Positions 4,601-16,492 of a stretch of 16,492 nucleotides of DNA are shown in pieces. Position numbers and translations under genes: made by a program. Origin of the DNA: Breznakia sp. PF5-3 (GTDB lineage Bacteria; Bacillota_I; Bacilli_A; Erysipelotrichales; Erysipelotrichaceae); contig NZ_JAQFIQ010000049.1 in the NCBI RefSeq assembly GCF_029504745.1, positions 1 through 16,492 of the forward strand, in the 5' to 3' direction. Numbering within the stretch: position 1 is the stretch's first letter; each line of letters begins with the position of its first letter. The notes below the pieces were generated by a model. That model worked only from the letters and a program-made list of their open reading frames with translations, was not told the DNA's origin and did not search any database.

Positions 4601-5098
4601 ATGGTACAAGTAAGCATTGTTATGGGAAGTAAAAGTGATTTAGGTGTTATGGAAAACTGTATGGATATGTTGAAAGAATTTGAAATCGGATATGAAGTGA
4701 GAATCTTATCAGCACATCGTACGCCTGTGGAATCTCATGAATATGCAGTAGGATTGAGGGAGCGAGGAATCAAGGTTGTGATTGCTGCTGCTGGAGGTGC
4801 TGCACATCTTGCTGGTGTAATTGCTGGGACAACAACGTTGCCCGTAATTGGTGTGCCAATTGAAACCAAAGCACTTGGGGGAATGGATTCCCTTCTATCG
4901 ATTGTGCAAATGCCCAAAGGCATTCCGGTTGCAACTGTTGCAATAGGAAAAGCTGGGGCTGCAAATGCAGCGATTTTGGCAGCTCAAATTCTAGGAGTAA
5001 GTGATCATGTAATGGCAGAAAAGATGAGTGAATATAAAAAGACAATGGCATCAAAAGTATTGGCAGATACAGATGTAGAAACATATATGGGGAAATAA
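4601..5098 (+). CDS. purE: 5-(carboxyamino)imidazole ribonucleotide mutase (PurE, class I-like motifs)
   Basis: 165 aa with SD gggagg (4587-4592) 8 nt upstream. Motifs: IVMGSKSD, SAHRTP, AAGGAAHLAGV, SIVQMPKGIPVATVAIGKAGAANAA. Confidence 0.95.
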   Translation: MVQVSIVMGSKSDLGVMENCMDMLKEFEIGYEVRILSAHRTPVESHEYAVGLRERGIKVVIAAAGGAAHLAGVIAGTTTLPVIGVPIETKALGGMDSLLSIVQMPKGIPVATVAIGKAGAANAAILAAQILGVSDHVMAEKMSEYKKTMASKVLADTDVETYMGK

Positions 5099-5100
5099 CG

Positions 5101-8100
5101 ATGAAAAAGAGAATCTTTGTAAGTAAAAAGGAAAAATATAATATTGAAGCAGTAGCCCTTTGTGAAGAATTTACACAAACGTTGGGAATTGAAAGTATAA
5201 AAAATGTAGTTTTATATAATGTGTATGATGTTTTTCATGCCGATGCACAAGATATAGAACTGTTGAAAACAAAAGTGCTAGCAGAAGTAGTTACGGATAA
5301 TGTATATGAAGAATTAGCACTTGATGGAAAAACATACATTGCTTATGAAAGTCTTCCTGGTCAATATGACCAAAGAAGTGATAGTGCACAAGTTTGTTTG
5401 ATGTTACTTAATAATAAGCAAGATGTGGTTGTGAAAAGTGGAAAGATTGTTGTTTTAGAAGGGGATCTAAAACAAGCAGAAATTCATCAGGTTAAAGATT
5501 ATTTAATTAATCCTGTTGAAATGCACGAAAAGGATTTAAGTATTTTAGAAAACGATGAAGATGTAACAATTGAACCGGTTGCCATCTTAGAAGGGTTTAC
5601 AACATTAAGTGAAACAGATCTTAAAGCATATCGTGATGCAGAAGGTTTGGCGATGACCTATGAAGATTTGGCGTTTATTCAAAAGTATTTTAAAGAGGAA
5701 GAAAAACGGGATCCAAGTATTACAGAGATAAAAGTATTGGATACGTATTGGTCAGATCATTGTCGTCATACAACATTTGAAACGGTATTGAAATCAATTG
5801 TAATTGAAAAAGGTAAGTTTAAGGACCAACTTCAAAATGCATATGAGTTATTTTTGAAATTAAATGCAGAAGCAAATAAAAAAGATAAACCAATTACGCT
5901 TATGAATATGGCGACTATTGGTGGTAAGTATTTACGTAAAATTGGATTGTTGGATGATTTGGAAGTCAGCGATGAAATCAATGCTTGTAGTATTGAGATA
6001 AAAGTTGATGTAGATGGTAAAGATGAAGATTATTTGTTGATGTTTAAAAATGAAACACATAATCATCCTACAGAGATTGAACCATTTGGTGGTGCAAGTA
6101 CTTGTATTGGTGGTGCAATCCGTGATCCATTATCAGGAAGAAGCTATGTATATCAAGCAATGCGTATTACAGGAGCAGGAGATATCACAAAGGATATCAA
6201 AGATACGTTACCAAATAAGTTAGCTCAGAGTGTGATTTCAAAGACGGCAGCTCAAGGATATTCATCTTATGGAAATCAAATTGGTTTGGCTACGACATAT
6301 GTGAAAGAATTGTTTGATGAAGGATATGTTGCCAAACGTATGGAAGTAGGAGCAGTTGTTGGCGCCGCACCAAAAGAGAATGTTGTACGTTTAAAACCAC
6401 AACCAGGTGATATTGTTGTATTGCTTGGTGGTGACACAGGACGTGATGGAATTGGTGGAGCAACTGGTTCTAGTAAAGAACACAATGAGACTTCACTAAC
6501 GAAATGTTCAAGTGAGGTACAAAAAGGAAATGCTCCGATTGAACGTAAATTACAACGTTTGTTTAGGAATCCTTCATGTACAAAGTTAATTAAAAAAGCA
6601 AATGATTTTGGAGCAGGTGGAGTGAGTGTAGCCATTGGTGAATTAGCAGATGGAATTCATATCGATTTGGATAAGGTTCCTACGAAATATGCAGGACTTA
6701 ATGGAACAGAATTAGCTATCAGTGAATCACAAGAGCGTATGGCTTGTGTGATTGATCCAAGCGATTATGAAACCTTTCAACAATATGCATATGATGAAAA
6801 TTTAAATACTTATATCGTAGCAACCGTAAGTGATGATAATCGTTTAGTGATGAAGTTTAAGGGTGAAACAATTGTTGATATTGCAAGAAGTTTCTTAGAT
6901 ACCAATGGAGTTCGTACTTCCCAAGATGTAATCATTGAAGATTATACAGCTAAAGAAGAGGATCCATTTGCACCTAAACAAATGCATATTTTAGAAAACT
7001 TGAAGCAAGACAATGTTGCATCACAACGTGGTTTGGTGGAAATGTTTGATGCAACAATTGGGAAATCAACAGTTCTTATGCCATATGGTGGACGCTATCA
7101 ATTGAGTGAAAGTGAAGCAAGTGTACAAAAGGTACCAGTTTTTGGTTTCACGAATACAACCAGTGTTATGAGTTATGGATATCATCCAAAACTTAGTACA
7201 TATTCACCATATTTAGGTGGAGCATACAGTGTTGTAGAAGCGCTGGCTAAGCTTGTTGCAGTAGGTGCTAGTTATGAACATGCACGGTTATCTTGCCAAG
7301 AGTATTTTGAACGTTTGAATCAAGACCCAAAAGCTTGGGGAAAACCAACGCAAGCACTACTGGGGTTAATTGAAGCCCAATATGAATTTCAAACACCAGC
7401 AATTGGTGGAAAAGATAGTATGAGTGGTACTTATAAAGATATTCATGTACCTCCAACATTGATTACGTTTGCTGTTACGAGTGAGAATGTAAATAACATT
7501 ATCTCTAGTGATTTCAAAAAAGAAGGACATTATATTTATCTTGTGAAGCATCCAATGCACAATAATTACATGCCAAACTATGAAGCGTTGAAAAAGAACT
7601 TTAAGAAAGTGAAGCAACTTATTGATGAAAATATTATTTTATCAGCTTCAACAGTAAAATTTGGTGGTATTGCTGAAAGTTTATGTAAGATGAGCTTTGG
7701 TAATAAAATAGGTGTTTCTGTACAAGCGGATGAAGATATTTATAACTTATCAATCGGTAGTTTTGTAGTTGAAACAACAGAGCAAATCACAGCAGAGAAC
7801 TTCATTTTGTTGGGAGAAACAACAAAATCTAAAAATATTTTCATTAATGGTGATACAGTTGAAATAGATGATGCTATTGATGCATGGGAAGAACGCTATC
7901 ATAAATTATACCCAACTGTTGTGAATGAGGATAAACCAACAATTAGCACGCCTCTTTATGAAGCGAATGAAATAAGGAAGAATACGAAGAAAATAGATAA
8001 ACCAAAAGTTATTATTACGGTTTTCCCGGGAAATAACTGTGAGTATGATTGTAAGGCTGCATTTGAAAGAGCAGGGGCAGAAGCTGAAATTTATGTGTTT

Positions 8101-8796
8101 AATAATCTTAATGTTGCATCTACTCAAAAATCACTTGAGGTGTTGAGTGACAAGATTAAAAATGCACAGATATTGATGATCCCTGGTGGATTTAGTAGTG
8201 GAGATGAACCGGATGGTAGTGGAAAGTTTATTGCCAATGTATTAAGCAATGATTTGATTCGCTCAGCAGTTCAGACTTTGTTAGCGAATGATGGTTTGAT
8301 TCTTGGTATCTGTAATGGATTCCAAGCATTGGTAAAATCTGGATTATTACCATATGGAGATATTAGTAAGGTAAGTGAGACATCACCTACATTATTTAGA
8401 AATGACATCAATCGACATGTTTCGCATATTGCATCAACACGAATTACTTCTAATAAATCGCCTTGGTTATCAAGTTTTAAACCAGGGGATGTACATCATA
8501 TTGCGATGTCACATGGAGAAGGTAAATTTGTTGTAAATGAGGCAGATGCAAAACAATTGTTTGAAAATGGTCAAATAGCAACCCAATATGTTGATCTTGA
8601 AGGGGATACTACAATGAATGGAAATTTCAATATCAATGGCAGTGATTATGCAATTGAAGGAATTACCAGTGAAGATGGTAGAATCTTTGGAAAGATGGGG
8701 CATAGTGAACGTTATGAAGATGGACTATATAAAAATATTTATGGTGAAAAAATGCAGAATATATTTGAAAACGGAGTAAACTATTTTAAACGGTAA
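5101..8796 (+). CDS. purL: Phosphoribosylformylglycinamidine (FGAM) synthase, single-chain form (PurS-like N-terminus + PurL + PurQ glutaminase)
   Basis: 1231 aa. The start is 2 nt after the purE stop. Synthetase motifs: DTYWSDHCRHTTF and NHPTEIEPFGGASTCIGGAIRD. The C-terminal class-I amidotransferase triad context is GICNGFQAL ... MSHGEG ... GHSER. Confidence 0.95.
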   Translation: MKKRIFVSKKEKYNIEAVALCEEFTQTLGIESIKNVVLYNVYDVFHADAQDIELLKTKVLAEVVTDNVYEELALDGKTYIAYESLPGQYDQRSDSAQVCLMLLNNKQDVVVKSGKIVVLEGDLKQAEIHQVKDYLINPVEMHEKDLSILENDEDVTIEPVAILEGFTTLSETDLKAYRDAEGLAMTYEDLAFIQKYFKEEEKRDPSITEIKVLDTYWSDHCRHTTFETVLKSIVIEKGKFKDQLQNAYELFLKLNAEANKKDKPITLMNMATIGGKYLRKIGLLDDLEVSDEINACSIEIKVDVDGKDEDYLLMFKNETHNHPTEIEPFGGASTCIGGAIRDPLSGRSYVYQAMRITGAGDITKDIKDTLPNKLAQSVISKTAAQGYSSYGNQIGLATTYVKELFDEGYVAKRMEVGAVVGAAPKENVVRLKPQPGDIVVLLGGDTGRDGIGGATGSSKEHNETSLTKCSSEVQKGNAPIERKLQRLFRNPSCTKLIKKANDFGAGGVSVAIGELADGIHIDLDKVPTKYAGLNGTELAISESQERMACVIDPSDYETFQQYAYDENLNTYIVATVSDDNRLVMKFKGETIVDIARSFLDTNGVRTSQDVIIEDYTAKEEDPFAPKQMHILENLKQDNVASQRGLVEMFDATIGKSTVLMPYGGRYQLSESEASVQKVPVFGFTNTTSVMSYGYHPKLSTYSPYLGGAYSVVEALAKLVAVGASYEHARLSCQEYFERLNQDPKAWGKPTQALLGLIEAQYEFQTPAIGGKDSMSGTYKDIHVPPTLITFAVTSENVNNIISSDFKKEGHYIYLVKHPMHNNYMPNYEALKKNFKKVKQLIDENIILSASTVKFGGIAESLCKMSFGNKIGVSVQADEDIYNLSIGSFVVETTEQITAENFILLGETTKSKNIFINGDTVEIDDAIDAWEERYHKLYPTVVNEDKPTISTPLYEANEIRKNTKKIDKPKVIITVFPGNNCEYDCKAAFERAGAEAEIYVFNNLNVASTQKSLEVLSDKIKNAQILMIPGGFSSGDEPDGSGKFIANVLSNDLIRSAVQTLLANDGLILGICNGFQALVKSGLLPYGDISKVSETSPTLFRNDINRHVSHIASTRITSNKSPWLSSFKPGDVHHIAMSHGEGKFVVNEADAKQLFENGQIATQYVDLEGDTTMNGNFNINGSDYAIEGITSEDGRIFGKMGHSERYEDGLYKNIYGEKMQNIFENGVNYFKR

Positions 8797-11969: not shown

Positions 11970-12544
11970 AGGTAGCAGTTTTTGCTTCGGGAAGTGGAAC
12001 GAATTTCGAAAATTTAGCGAAAGCAAAATATACAAACGCTAAAATTGTGTTATTAGTAGTTGATAAAGAGGATGCATATGCAATCACTAGAGCAAAAAAA
12101 TTCCAGATTCCATATGTTTATGTAAATCCTAAGGCATTTTCTTCAAAAAGAGAATATGAGGAACAAATTATAAAATATTTAGAACAGTATGAAATTGACT
12201 TTATCGCTTTAGCTGGATATATGCGTTTTATTGGGACATCGTTATTAACGAAATATCCTAATCGGATTATTAATTTACATCCTGCATATTTACCTGCTTT
12301 TCCAGGTGCGCATAGTATCGAGGAAGCATATGAAGCCAAAGTTGAACATAGTGGGGTAACAATTCATTATGTAGATGAAGGAATTGATACAGGAACAATT
12401 ATTCATCAAGAGAAAGTGTTTCTTGATCCAAAATGGAGTTTGGAAGAATTTGAAGATGCAATTCATACTTTAGAATATAAGATGTTTCCTGTGGTATTAA
12501 ATAAAATATGTGAGGAGGTAAACCATGAAAAGAGCATTGATTAG
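11963..12544 (+). CDS. purN: GAR formyltransferase
   Basis: 193 aa. The GTG start overlaps the purM stop (gtggtaa). Motifs: [42 protein letters not shown]. Confidence 0.9.
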
Positions 12545-14054
12545 TGTTTCAGATAAAGAGGGGTTAGTCCCTTTTGCACAAAGTTTGATTTCTTTGGGAT
12601 ATGAAATTATTTCAACAGGAGGAACAAAAAAGGTTTTAGAAGAAAGTGGTGTACAAACGATTGGAATTAGTGAAGTTACCAATTTTCCTGAAATCATGGA
12701 TGGGAGAGTAAAGACATTACATCCAAATGTACATGGAGCATTGTTATGTGTTCGTGATAATCCTAATCATGTGAAACAATTAGAGGAATTGGATATTAAG
12801 TATATTGATTTAGTATGTGTAAATTTATATCCATTCAAACAAACGCTTCAAAAAGCTGGTGTAACACATGAAGAAATTATTGAAAACATTGATATTGGTG
12901 GACCTAGTATGTTGCGTAGTGCAGCAAAGAACTATAAGTTTATTCCTGTGGTTGTAGACCCTCAAGATTATGATTCAGTAATCCATGAACTGAAAAAAGA
13001 TGGAGAAACTTGTTTGGTTACAAGAGAATATTTAGCTGCAAAAGTATTCCGTCACACAGCTAGTTATGATACAATCATTGCACAATATTTAGGTGAAAAG
13101 ACAGGTGCAAAATTTCCTGAGTCTTTTACGATTACGTATGATAAAGTACAAGATCTTCGCTATGGAGAAAATCCTCACCAAGAAGCAGCTTTTTATAAGG
13201 CAGCAGATCCAAAATATTCAATTGCAAATGCGAAGCAATTGCATGGTAAGGAATTATCTTATAATAATATCCAAGATGCAAATGCATGTATTGAAGTCTT
13301 GAAAGACTTTGAACAACCTTGTGCTGTAGGAATGAAACACATGAATCCTTGTGGTGTGGGTATCGGGAAAACGATTGATGAAGCTTGGGATAAAGCTTAT
13401 GAAGCCGATTCTACTTCAATATTTGGAGGGATTGTATCTTTTAATCGTGAAGTTGGGGAAGCAACAGCAGAAAAGCTTTCAAAGATTTTCTTAGAGATAA
13501 TTATTGCTCCAAAATTTAGTGATAAAGCATTTGAAATATTAACTCAGAAAAAGAACATTCGTTTAATGGAATTGGATACTTCTTTGGAAGTGAATTCAAA
13601 ATTAAAAGTAACCAATGTAAATGATGGTCTTTTAGTTCAAGATATGGACTTGAAAAATGTTGCTGAAGAAGAACTAACGTTCCCAACAAAACGGAAACCT
13701 ACAAAAGAGGAATTGGAACAATTAATATTTGCTTGGAAGGTAGTAAAACATGTGAAAAGTAATGCAATTGTTTTGGTGAAAGATGATATGACAATTGGTG
13801 TTGGTGCAGGACAGATGAATCGTGTAGGAGCAGCAAAAATAGCAATTGAACAAGCAGGAGAAAAAGCAAACGGAAGTGTGATGAGCAGTGATGCATTCTT
13901 CCCTATGCCAGATACTGTTGAAGCGGCAATTAAAGCAGGAGTAACTGCGATTATTCAACCTGGTGGATCAATCAAAGATCAATTATCAGTTGATGTTTGT
14001 GATGAACATGGAATCGCGATGGTTTATACAGGAGTTCGTCATTTTAAACACTAA
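12525..14054 (+). CDS. purH: Bifunctional AICAR formyltransferase / IMP cyclohydrolase
   Basis: 509 aa. SD gaggagg is upstream and the gene overlaps purN by 20 nt. Motifs: [39 protein letters not shown]. Confidence 0.95.
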
Positions 14055-14077
14055 GCTAGAAATAATATAGGATACAC

Positions 14078-14114
14078 AAAACTACCAACTTTATAAGAAA
14101 GTGGTAGTTTTTTT
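14078..14114 (+). terminator. Rho-independent terminator of the pur operon
   Basis: aaaactacca (14078-14087) pairs with tggtagtttt (14102-14111). An inner extension cttt/aaag pairs around the loop ataag, and the T-run spans 14108-14114. The left flank is A-rich, so it could work in both directions. Confidence 0.85.
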
Positions 14115-14275
14115 GTTATTTAAAATTAAAAAATGAAGAAATAATTAATTATTAAGATGGTAATCAAAAAACTTTTGGTTTTAATTGGATTAGAACACAT
14201 CTATTTATAGATCGAAAATTATAGCATTTTTAATGGGTAGATGATTTTTGCTTAATTTTATTGTCTAATAAGTTT

Positions 14276-14305
14276 TTATGTGAAATCTTTTAGAAGTGCT
14301 ATAAT
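14276..14305 (+). promoter_or_regulatory. Candidate extended -10 promoter of the agr-like cassette
   Basis: tgctataat (TG at 14297-14298, TATAAT at 14300-14305) with a weak -35 (ttatgt, 14276-14281). It lies about 90 nt upstream of the first cassette ORF. Confidence 0.4.
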
Positions 14306-14391
14306 AATATAGAAAAGAAATGAAACACGTGAAAATGTTTATATAATATAGATAAACATATGAAATAGAATCTATGTAGTGAGGTAATTTG

Positions 14392-14712
14392 ATGAGTGAA
14401 AAAGAAAAAACAATGATATACATAAAATCAAAATTGAAATCAGGAAGCATTTATACAATTGTATTTACGGTTGCAGTGTTATTGATGTCTTTACTAAAAT
14501 TAGATTTGGAGGTTATCGTTTCTGCTTATATTGTTATTTTGTGTGCAATTATTTTGGCATTTAATTTTCCTAAAAGGAAGAAAAGTGACGGAAAAGTGCA
14601 ATATGAGCAATGGGATGGAGCACTTGTAAACGGAGCTTTTATTATAAATATGATTTGGAGTATATACTTATTGGTACCACCATTTGTTTTCTTTTTGGTT
14701 AGTGGTATTTAA
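14392..14712 (+). CDS. Small 3-TM membrane protein of unknown function, first gene of the agr-like cassette
   Basis: The ORF track starts at TTG 14389. The adjacent ATG at 14392 lies 6 nt after SD gaggt (14381-14385), giving 106 aa. There are three hydrophobic helices and basic inside segments (KSKLKSGS; PKRKKSDGK). The single Cys (Cys51) is in ILCAIILAFNFPKRKK. The gene stops 20 nt before agrB and is on the same strand. Confidence 0.6.
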   Translation: MSEKEKTMIYIKSKLKSGSIYTIVFTVAVLLMSLLKLDLEVIVSAYIVILCAIILAFNFPKRKKSDGKVQYEQWDGALVNGAFIINMIWSIYLLVPPFVFFLVSGI

Positions 14713-14732
14713 TTATAGAAAAGGTGATGTAA

Positions 14733-15305
14733 TTGATTAGTTGGATAGCAAAACGAATTGTCAATGTTTTTGAAAACAATGAAGTGATGGAACATGAAAA
14801 AGAAATCTACCAACATGGATTAGAATTGTGGTTATCTTATGTTAGTGGATTGATTGTTCAAATTATCTTCTGTATTTTTTCTGGCTTCTGGATTGAAACC
14901 ATATTATTTATTTTGTTTCTTGAAACATTACGTAAGTATGCAGGTGGTTATCATGCAAATACTTATTTAGGATGTAATATTATTTATTTGCTTTCATATT
15001 TTATTTATTATGCACTGATGGTTTATGTTGAAATTTTACCAAGTATTAGTGTTATTGGTTATCTTTTATCAGCACTTATTGTTTTAAGGCTTTCACCAGT
15101 GACACATATTCATAATCCACTAACAAAAGAAGAACAGAATAAATACAGACAAATTAGTTATTTAATTGTCTTTATGGATAGTGTTTTATTCTTTGTTTTC
15201 TATTTTTTATTACCTTATTATATGAATATTATATTTATATCTATGCTAATGAATGCATTATTTATGCTAGTAGGATTGCTATTTAATGAAAGGGGGGGAA
15301 TCTGA
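14733..15305 (+). CDS. agrB: AgrB-like accessory gene regulator protein B (membrane cysteine endopeptidase for cyclic autoinducer peptide maturation)
   Basis: 190 aa. The TTG start is 5 nt after SD aaggtga. The protein is polytopic and carries the family signature LRKYAGGYHANTYLGC. His74 (14952-14954) and Cys81 (14973-14975) are 7 residues apart, the same spacing as the catalytic H77/C84 of S. aureus AgrB. Confidence 0.8.
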   Translation: MISWIAKRIVNVFENNEVMEHEKEIYQHGLELWLSYVSGLIVQIIFCIFSGFWIETILFILFLETLRKYAGGYHANTYLGCNIIYLLSYFIYYALMVYVEILPSISVIGYLLSALIVLRLSPVTHIHNPLTKEEQNKYRQISYLIVFMDSVLFFVFYFLLPYYMNIIFISMLMNALFMLVGLLFNERGGI

Positions 15306-16019
15306 ATGAAATTATCAATTTGCGTTGTTGATGATACAAGTGATAGTTTAGAAACGATTCAAAAATATATTAAAGAATATGAACTGTTTAGAAGATCGGA
15401 TGTTTTTTGCTTTTCAGATTCTCAAAACAGAGGAATTTTAGAAAGAGAATATGATTTATATTTTCTTGATATTGACATGCCAAATTTAAATGGCTTTGAA
15501 TTAGCTACCAAAATACAAGAACAATATCCAAATACAATTTTGTTATTTGTATCAAATCATAATGAATTTGTTTATGATTCTTTTAAGTTTGATGCCTTTT
15601 TCTTTGTACGAAAAGATCATTTTGAAAGTGATATGAAAGATGCTTTGAAATTAGCGAATGAAAAATTACTTCGTAAAGAGAAACGATATATTTTAGAAAA
15701 TAAAGGTGATAAGCGTACGATTCCATATAATGATATTTTATATTTTGAAAAATTAAAAAATAAAATAAGAATAAAAACGATGAATCATGGTGATTTTTAT
15801 GAATTACAAAGCATGAAAGGGCTCCAGCAGAAAATTAATTTGAAGGAATTAGGGTTTTGTTTGATTAGTGCTGGAACATGCGTGAACTTAAATAGCATTG
15901 TGCGTTTGAATGGCAATGATGTGTTTTTAAAAGGAGACATTAGTTTGATTGCAAGTCGCAGATATTTGCCTGAATTAAAGCATGAATATCAAAAACATTT
16001 GATGGAGAGTGATACATAA
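15306..16019 (+). CDS. LytTR-family response regulator (AgrA-like)
   Basis: 237 aa. The ATG directly follows the agrB stop (ctgaatg) and SD aggggggg is upstream. The receiver domain has VVDD, FLDIDMPNLNGFEL (Asp55 as phospho-acceptor) and LLFVSNH. The C-terminal LytTR-type DNA-binding domain reads IPYNDILYFEKLKNKIRIKT...FCLISAGTCVNLNSI. Confidence 0.85.
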   Translation: MKLSICVVDDTSDSLETIQKYIKEYELFRRSDVFCFSDSQNRGILEREYDLYFLDIDMPNLNGFELATKIQEQYPNTILLFVSNHNEFVYDSFKFDAFFFVRKDHFESDMKDALKLANEKLLRKEKRYILENKGDKRTIPYNDILYFEKLKNKIRIKTMNHGDFYELQSMKGLQQKINLKELGFCLISAGTCVNLNSIVRLNGNDVFLKGDISLIASRRYLPELKHEYQKHLMESDT

Positions 16020-16405
16020 TGCCAATTTCTATTTTTGACTTAACCATCAATGTTGTGGAAGCTGTCATCTTTGTGCTTTTTCTGACTCGTTATTTTCAGA
16101 TGAAAAAGTCTTTTACTATGACATATTTCATTTTATGGGTTATCTTCGGAGCTGTTGGAGTGACCATCATGAATATTTATTTAGGATATGAGAAATATTT
16201 TACATTTCTGATTTCGTTGGGACTTTATTTTCCTTGGTTGCTTGTGTTTGCCAAAGGGAGTGTGTTGGAAAAGGGGTATATAAGCCTTTTTATGATTCAA
16301 TTGAATGCAACGATTATAACGACTAATTTAATCCTCGGTTCTTTTATTGTGTATCATGGTATTGAAATGGCGAAGATTTTAAGTGAACACTATGAAGTGA
16401 TGTGA
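16019..16405 (+). pseudogene. AgrC-like sensor histidine kinase, N-terminal membrane part only (truncated by IS insertion)
   Basis: The start overlaps the regulator stop (taatg). The 128 aa consist only of TM helices, as in the sensor module of AgrC/LytTR-associated GHKL kinases. No H-box or ATPase domain follows. The stop TGA (16403-16405) falls inside the first bases of the IS terminal repeat. Confidence 0.65.
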
Positions 16406-16492
16406 ACCCATAAAGTTGGACACGTTATTATTTAAGCGCTTAAACTTGAGGATTGTTCTCTGTATGCTACAGGGGATAATCCTTTTAGTTTG
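16401..16492 (-). mobile_element. End of an IS3-family insertion sequence (right terminal repeat plus transposase 3' end), continuing beyond the window
   Basis: The terminal sequence is tgtgaacccataaagttggacacg from 16401. It has a TG end and a ...gttggacac motif, which I recall from IS150/IS3-group termini. About 30 nt further in, the minus strand encodes a typical IS3 OrfB C-terminus. The exact boundary is ambiguous (16398, 16401 or 16403). Confidence 0.7.
16432..16492 (-). CDS. IS3-family transposase (OrfB, DDE/rve), C-terminal 19 codons only
   Basis: The minus-strand translation of 16491->16435 is KLKGLSPVAYREQSSSLSA, followed by stop TAA (complement of 16432-16434). The L-x-G-L-SP-x-x-YR ending is the conserved C-terminal motif of IS3-family integrase-fold transposases. 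It is absent from the ORF track because it is cut by the window edge. Confidence 0.75.
   Translation of the reverse strand, partial: KLKGLSPVAYREQSSSLSA

Follow-up and report, generated by a model that had tools for sequence, protein, structure and literature searches.

A Breznakia agr-type locus with a kinase gene cut by an IS3-family element and a probable AgrD-like precursor gene behind the kinase

Where is the precursor peptide encoded in an agr-type locus whose peptidase, regulator, and kinase genes follow one another so tightly that no space is left for agrD? This question is raised by the far end of a 16,492-nucleotide stretch of Breznakia sp. PF5-3 (contig NZ_JAQFIQ010000049.1 of assembly GCF_029504745.1; the whole stretch is called the window here), which an earlier note, made from the letters alone, described as an agr-like cassette without a recognisable AgrD precursor gene. 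Comparison with an uninterrupted allele and with related loci makes it highly probable that this is an agr-type locus in the order agrB, LytTR regulator, kinase, and AgrD-like precursor, with the kinase gene cut by an insertion sequence (IS) at the window edge. The precursor appears to be lacking because the IS cuts the kinase gene where the window ends.

The agrB gene (14733..15305, + strand, TTG start) encodes a membrane peptidase/cyclase of 190 amino acids for precursor processing, which matched PF04647 with an E-value of 2.9e-34 and 118.5 bits over 183 of the 185 model positions. The protein retains the RKYAGGYHANTYLGC block containing the His/Cys pair, and among 15 aligned homologues (21–56% identity), the residues G29, R67, G71, G72, Y73, H74, A75, C81, and P122 are invariant, which bears out the earlier description of this open reading frame (ORF) as an AgrB with its His/Cys dyad (H74 and C81). 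A comparison with PDB sequences gave no match at E ≤ 1. The agrB TGA (15303–15305) adjoins, without a gap, the ATG at 15306 of an AgrA-like response regulator of 237 amino acids (15306..16019, + strand), which is composed of a REC domain (PF00072 Response_reg, E 1e-13) and a LytTR domain (PF04397, E 3.5e-9), matches the NCBIfam AgrA model weakly and below the cut-off, and has Asp55 as the predicted phospho-acceptor from its FLDIDMP motif. The regulator TAA (16017–16019) overlaps the kinase ATG (16019–16021) in the string ATAATG; both junctions are as the earlier note had read them.

The uninterrupted allele, found by exact-sequence look-up of AgrB, lies on a contig of 26 kb from Breznakia sp. 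PF5-3 (GCA_029504795.1; locus L001). Between 4733 and 16399, the window shows 0 mismatches against it, and from 16400 onward, the two are unrelated. The window thus holds the first 127 native codons of an AgrC-like sensor kinase gene (16019..16399, + strand, identical to L001), which encode only transmembrane sensor segments, and the ORF as it stands is a hydrophobic 128-codon product with its stop at 16403–16405. The HATPase_c_5 domain, proposed earlier as a check on the kinase, is not in this fragment, for which the Pfam scan matched no domain, and is present in the intact L001 kinase of 425 amino acids (E 9.5e-17), together with an RHDLKH His box. The remaining agrC beyond the IS site starts with ...GTGGTTATTTTGTG in the intact allele.

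The last 93 nucleotides of the window (16400..16492, − strand) matched the ends of IS3-family, ISBth167-like elements by blastn with approximately 78% identity over 96% of the query, so the IS that had been suspected at the window end is there. The matches are transposase gene ends in 72 plasmid records, including ISBth167-like elements of the Bacillus cereus group and IS3 of Priestia megaterium, and the aligned part of these records consists of the final transposase codons and the terminal repeat; relative to the query, the transposase lies in antisense. Similarly, the minus strand of the window end carries the terminal repeat TGAACCCATAAAGTTGGACA and encodes a transposase C-terminus, ...KLKGLSPVAYREQSSSLSA*, reading GLSPVAYREQ. 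A three-way end alignment gave the common terminus TGAACCCAwAAAGTTrGACA, starting at window position 16403, and the insertion junction lies within 16398–16403. The kinase gene therefore carries an IS3-family element at codon 127/128, and the window ends inside the element.

No AgrD-type ORF lies within the window itself, in agreement with the earlier note. The + strand between purH and the 107-amino-acid ORF upstream of agrB (14055–14389) has no ORF of at least 20 codons, and two hidden Markov models (HMMs), derived from canonical AgrDs in one case and from the Breznakia peptides described below in the other, found nothing in 450 six-frame stop-to-stop segments of the window (best E 0.44 and 0.29). 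The six-frame HMM or motif matches inside purM, purL-antisense, and similar regions were rejected as chance and not as a missed AgrD.

Beyond the kinase, a candidate was found in each locus that extends far enough. In L001, 98 bp 3' of the kinase stop, there is a 49-codon ORF with a GGAGG ribosome-binding site, MKKLLLKKLSNICLKKSVGTLSCASANRVCQPKAPKALNKFKASKRENA; a small ORF of 43–49 amino acids directly follows the kinase in this allele and in seven further related loci, that is, in every locus reaching that far. The order agrB, response regulator, kinase, and small ORF recurs in Breznakia pachnodae (L003, with an AgrB of 52% identity) and in the metagenomic loci L004–L007 (AgrB identity 50–55%). 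The distant locus L017, found by profile search, consists of the 3' end of a kinase gene, the repeats described below, and then a 46-amino-acid peptide (P0025), and the L018 contig stops, past the kinase, at a repeat box. For the locus as a whole, the claim of an agr cassette without a recognisable AgrD accordingly fails: a precursor-like gene is present in the intact loci, and its place downstream of the kinase is routine in the orthologues. What stands of that claim is that the peptide is missed by the AgrD family models. Among the substrate locations that the earlier note had offered, the evidence favors the one beyond the IS over a non-canonical substrate such as the 106-amino-acid ORF (the same upstream ORF counted from its later start).

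The peptide alignment comprises six distinct sequences, in which the blocks MKKLLL, KKSVGTLSCAS, R, and QPK.P.AL are invariant and variation is limited to four core positions (AN/IA/YS; V/M/T/A; C/S/A). A variable signal core between conserved processing elements is the pattern of AgrD. The small ORF likewise has the anatomy of an AgrD, with a length of 43–49 amino acids, within the 40–60 expected of one, an invariant Cys/Ser at the variable core, and a Pro-containing C-terminal tail. It matched the AgrD of the more distant locus L008 (TIGR04223, 37.7 bits) by BLASTP at E 2e-5, with an identical QPKAPKAL block, and an hhalign comparison of the peptide profile with five TIGR04223-positive AgrDs gave an E-value of 7.7e-5 and a probability of 62% over 16 tail columns. 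UniRef labels the B. pachnodae orthologue a 'Cyclic lactone autoinducer peptide', while NCBI calls both orthologues hypothetical.

Several observations count against this assignment. The hhalign match is weak, being confined to those 16 columns at 62% probability, and four Breznakia-type peptides gave no TIGR04223 or PF05931 match even at E ≤ 10, while control AgrDs (C. perfringens, S. aureus, Listeria, and the L008 and L010 peptides; the first three are textbook sequences) scored 30–53 bits, with the cut-off at 19. Among 1.84 billion representatives, a profile search came upon no canonical AgrD and returned P0003 and P0025 as the only true relatives. The leader is not amphipathic, as its hydrophobic moment over residues 2–19 is 0.10 and no better than that of shuffles (0.55 for S. 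aureus AgrD and 0.44 for C. perfringens), and the peptide has a net charge of +12 with a basic rather than acidic tail. The repeat matrix discussed below was built from the same sites that it mostly recovered, and the window stops in the IS, so the remaining agrC and the precursor of its own genome lie outside the sequence seen. As no family model matches, the case for membership is built on anatomy, synteny, and comparisons made pairwise or by profile. By its sequence, the small ORF is AgrD-like, without being a demonstrable member of the curated AgrD family, and it very probably works as the substrate of AgrB.

The remaining matches of the 1.84-billion profile search are long repeat proteins (TTSCAWVNNGSQPEEP repeats and RCC1-like DGTLSCWG repeats), which were judged spurious as their scores sum many weak repeats. 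Two secreted-looking proteins, P0023 (2308 amino acids) and P0024 (1475 amino acids), have 10–30 tandem copies of a 24-residue repeat of the form TATNCWDDYQFNTTSCAWVNNGSQPEEP; they are unrelated to agr, and their high scores against the peptide profile arise only from adding up weak repeat matches.

The sequence common to all loci upstream of agrB is the exact TGCTATAAT, an extended −10 element. In the window, this extended −10-like element, TGcTATAAT, lies at 14297..14305 on the + strand, corresponding to L001 9565–9573, and L003–L007 each have a single exact copy of the 9-mer on the + strand, 48–72 nt upstream of agrB. It is the predicted promoter of the agrB–regulator–kinase operon. The intergenic region from the kinase to the peptide gene has a mean column identity of 81% and carries two direct repeats with a 21-bp period (ACCRWWTDTMMC), followed by a TATATA/TATATT −10-like box ahead of the peptide gene. 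Such pairs were found upstream of the peptide gene in L001 (ACCATTTTTACC and ACCAAATGTCAC), L003 (ACCGATTATCAC and ACCGATTGTCAC), L004 (ACCAATTGTCCCGTTTG twice), L005–L007, and L017, which has a pair of its own (ACCAATTTTAAC / ACCAATTATGTC). A pair of direct repeats approximately 21 bp apart is the geometry of AgrA/LytTR boxes, and the repeats, including ACCATTTTTACCGTTTCACCGACCAAATGTCACAGTTT, look like LytTR boxes for the regulator. A repeat matrix run over approximately 100 kb of related loci recovered pairs only before the peptide gene, plus one further pair in L007 (5462); this pair and that of L017 lie outside the set from which the matrix was built. The same scan found no 21-bp LytTR-type repeats upstream of agrB or of the 106-amino-acid ORF, or anywhere in the window. 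Taken as read from these sites, the agrB–regulator–kinase operon would be under a housekeeping-type promoter and feedback would act on the precursor gene alone.

The second box pair of L007 (5462–5499; ACCAATCATACC / ACCGATTGTCAC) is upstream of a 343-amino-acid gene that follows the agr locus, has no Pfam match, and is followed by an unannotated gene of 188 amino acids. The system may regulate these genes in that species. In L005 and L006, homologues of the 343-amino-acid gene are followed by a very large gene (2410 amino acids in L006). Contigs of three independent Logan assemblies are broken in the repeat-box region between kinase and precursor gene (L002 ends at a point equal to L001 12603, while L015 and L016 start at L001 12582), which suggests sequence heterogeneity or graph branching at this very point.

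A working circuit of the following kind would fit these features. The extended −10 promoter TGcTATAAT would drive the coupled agrB, regulator, and kinase genes, in this strain together with the orphan 106-amino-acid ORF, and the precursor gene of 43–49 codons, approximately 100 bp past the kinase stop, would be transcribed from its own promoter behind the 21-bp-spaced repeats. AgrB (His74/Cys81) would remove the conserved tail x-QPKxPxAL... at the C-terminus and close the core into a ring through Ser25 or Cys23; the exported peptide would then be sensed by the kinase, leading to phosphorylation of the regulator and increased transcription of the precursor, with positive feedback limited to the signal gene. 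Alignment on the QP pair with C. perfringens (CLWFT/HQPEEP) and L010 (CPFIS/YQPTLP) puts the predicted cleavage after V29. The ring may be a lactone of five residues closed by Ser25 (S25-A-N-R-V, calculated [M+H]+ 528.289) or a thiolactone of seven residues closed by Cys23 (CASANRV, calculated [M+H]+ 702.335), the latter from the BLAST pairing of Cys23 with the canonical Cys of L008; Cys23 and Ser25 are both invariant among the peptides, so either may be the nucleophile.

As the kinase is cut at codon 127, within its sensor domain, the strain with the IS should be a signal-blind agr mutant with a destroyed kinase, and it should also be signal-poor provided that the precursor promoter is regulator-dependent. 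The precursor gene itself presumably persists beyond the IS in this strain. A separate change in the kinase gene was seen in the sister assembly GCA_030266565.1 (L014), which is 99.87% identical to L001 and has one extra T (L014 1734, equal to L001 12428) that shifts the kinase frame ahead of the GHGYG ATP-binding box and so removes the box; this could be a second independent loss of agrC or a homopolymer sequencing error.

The small ORF could be read differently, as a LytTR-controlled cationic pheromone or bacteriocin-like peptide with another route of processing and export, as in three-component systems of a peptide, a histidine kinase, and a response regulator, which would leave the substrate of AgrB elsewhere or AgrB as an orphan. 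The failure of the peptide in both AgrD family models, its highly cationic composition and non-amphipathic leader, as in many induction peptides, and the position of the only repeat boxes at its own promoter all suit such a peptide. It has, however, no double-glycine leader or GG-type motif, since the alignment reads ...KKSVG-T with the consensus hydrophobic positions unmet, and neither an ABC transporter nor a C39 peptidase is present among the called genes of L001 and L003–L007. Moreover, none of the loci offers AgrB another candidate substrate, the QPKxPxAL block corresponds to the tail by which AgrB recognises TIGR04223-positive AgrDs, and variation is confined to a short core beside the invariant Cys/Ser, as is the pattern in AgrD; we regard the pheromone alternative as unlikely. 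An assembly chimera at 16400, with the kinase intact in the strain, has a still smaller chance of being right. The window stops 93 nt into foreign DNA, with the second IS end and any target-site duplication out of view, and the ATG at 16400–16402 at the junction is explained by neither partner, which would suit a chimera, but the sequences diverge within 0–3 nt of the terminal nucleotides TGAACCCAwAAAGTT that are common to two independent IS3-family elements, and a contig end inside a repeated IS is the usual outcome of assembly. The divergence at the exact IS3 terminus looks like a real insertion boundary.

The idea that AgrB acts on the 106-amino-acid membrane ORF as a non-canonical substrate, or needs it as an essential partner, is close to negligible in weight. 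This ORF (14392..14712, + strand; 107 amino acids if the TTG at 14389 is used) encodes a predicted membrane protein, lies between the conserved promoter and agrB, is probably co-transcribed, and has a plausible putative ribosome-binding site (GTGAGG). It has, on the other side, no AgrD-like motif and no match reaching the cut-off in Pfam or NCBIfam, a homologue search of 5.8 billion clusters returned only the ORF itself, and it is missing from L004, which shares the same purH–agrB synteny, and from L003 and L005–L007. The idea is largely refuted by this absence and was dropped, as the ORF has no homologue but itself; on these comparisons, it is an orphan specific to the strain or species rather than a conserved partner. 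The gene order does differ from agrBDCA, as noted earlier, being B-A-C-D in the intact loci. The favored account remains that of an agr-type locus with an AgrD-like precursor behind the kinase.

Compared with S. aureus agrBDCA, the Breznakia loci share an AgrB whose His and Cys stand seven residues apart in both, a LytTR regulator, an AgrC-type kinase (seen in the intact allele) that joins a GHKL (HATPase_c_5) domain to a polytopic sensor, a small precursor with a variable core by an invariant Cys/Ser and a Pro-containing C-terminal tail, and tandem direct repeats with a period of approximately 21 bp before a regulated promoter. They differ in the order B-A-C-D instead of B-D-C-A, in having the repeat boxes only before the precursor gene while an unrelated promoter, of the extended −10 type, serves the B-A-C operon, and in a cationic precursor (+12) with a non-amphipathic leader and a basic tail that is missed by PF05931 and TIGR04223. 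Staphylococcal agr-defective variants arise by mutations or IS insertions in agrC/agrA. The window resembles these in that a sensor-kinase gene is inactivated by a mobile element, whereas the genus and the IS family differ.

Gene order is evidently fluid in this family: among the more distant AgrB relatives, L008 has the order regulator, kinase, AgrD, and AgrB, L009 has regulator, kinase, AgrB, and peptide, and L010 has AgrD and AgrB with a divergent regulator and kinase. Among clostridia, C. difficile 027 was described with the permuted order agrACDB (PMC3754575), and agrBD and agrCA can also form separate operons (PMC12312760); a search of the available literature found other permutations and no description of the exact B-A-C-D order. 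The clostridial loci (C. difficile 027, L008, and L009) are similar to those of Breznakia in their permuted order and in the precursor tail x-QPKxPKxL, and the AgrD of L008 shares not only QPKAPKAL with the Breznakia peptide but also a basic tail. By contrast, agrD of the clostridial type adjoins agrB and is matched by TIGR04223, whereas in Breznakia, agrB and the precursor have the regulator and kinase genes between them and the core is three residues longer between the conserved SC and QP. The E. faecalis fsrABDC system also has a non-canonical order in which the regulator gene is not last, and its GBAP is a Ser-closed lactone, like one of the ring options in Breznakia, while its fsrD directly follows and overlaps fsrB and its ring has nine residues (general background and PMC12312760).

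Behind the precursor gene, a stretch of 150–230 nt from the precursor stop to the terminator is conserved at the nucleotide level although the downstream genes differ (L001 12813–12985; L003 10797–11030; L004 8824–9010; L005 5305–5532; L007 5176–5408), and it contains the motifs AGGAAAGAGGGTT, GGGTGTAAAG, and ATAGGAAAAGGTTA; L017 is without it and has a terminator directly after the peptide gene. Rfam gave nothing at gathering scores for this stretch and no RNAIII homologue in L001, L003, and L007, and RNAalifold on the stretch gave only −3.5 kcal/mol on a poor alignment, with no convincing consensus fold. Two explanations were set aside. A CsrA sponge is unsupported, as GGA motifs are not clearly enriched (4–8 per 200 nt, the background being 3.7 ± 1.9), and a short coding ORF was rejected, as its frame is lost between L003 and L007 through a 1-nt indel. 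A bolder possibility, which we hold to be doubtful, is that the Breznakia peptides are AgrB substrates of a class of their own (cationic, missed by the current AgrD models, lacking an amphipathic leader, and closed as a Ser-lactone or as an unusually large 7-residue Cys ring) with LytTR feedback on the precursor only, and that the 3' extension of 150–200 nt acts as an RNAIII-like effector RNA. An effector RNA of the RNAIII type was reported to be absent from non-staphylococcal agr systems (PMC12312760).

For annotation, these loci indicate that an agr precursor gene can hide behind the two-component genes and escape the AgrD HMMs under the NCBI name 'hypothetical protein'; as the precursor can sit past the kinase and evade HMMs, calls of "AgrB without AgrD" should be followed up past the kinase and past the ends of contigs. 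The loci further suggest a compact agr circuit of insect-gut Erysipelotrichaceae with feedback seemingly on the signal gene only, and the natural kinase-null variants (by the IS here and possibly by the frameshift in the sister strain) recall the social 'signal-blind' variants of staphylococci. The current understanding of agr systems is left standing by these findings, and a divergent precursor class with a conserved 3' transcript extension is their speculative upside.

The upstream neighbor of the cassette, and outside it, is purH (12525..14054, + strand, from the ORF list), the last gene of the purine operon, whose identical copy in L001 carries the Pfam domains MGS and AICARFT_IMPCHas. After purH, a hairpin with a T-run at approximately 14080–14115 was read directly from the sequence, and the terminator scan did not flag this hairpin. 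The scan did report a 17-pair hairpin at 16448–16484, in the region coding for the transposase C-terminus, which may be an IS end structure. The distant AgrB of L009 (P0014; locus 5001–8129) is followed by a Cys-rich peptide of 40 amino acids, MNWVNEPTNQEIGIQPLFCLVYFWCSDLSCDDKGCGIFIS, which has no TIGR04223 match, and then by a radical-SAM enzyme, a 48-amino-acid ORF, and a CPBP/Rce1-like protease, an arrangement that could represent a hybrid cluster of AgrB with a radical-SAM RiPP (a peptide made by the ribosome and modified after translation) pathway. Most Bacillota have split PurS/PurQ/PurL proteins instead of one large PurL. In the purine operon of the window, PurL is a single chain of 1231 amino acids (5101–8796) with the FGAR-AT linker, AIRS_C, and GATase_5 domains.

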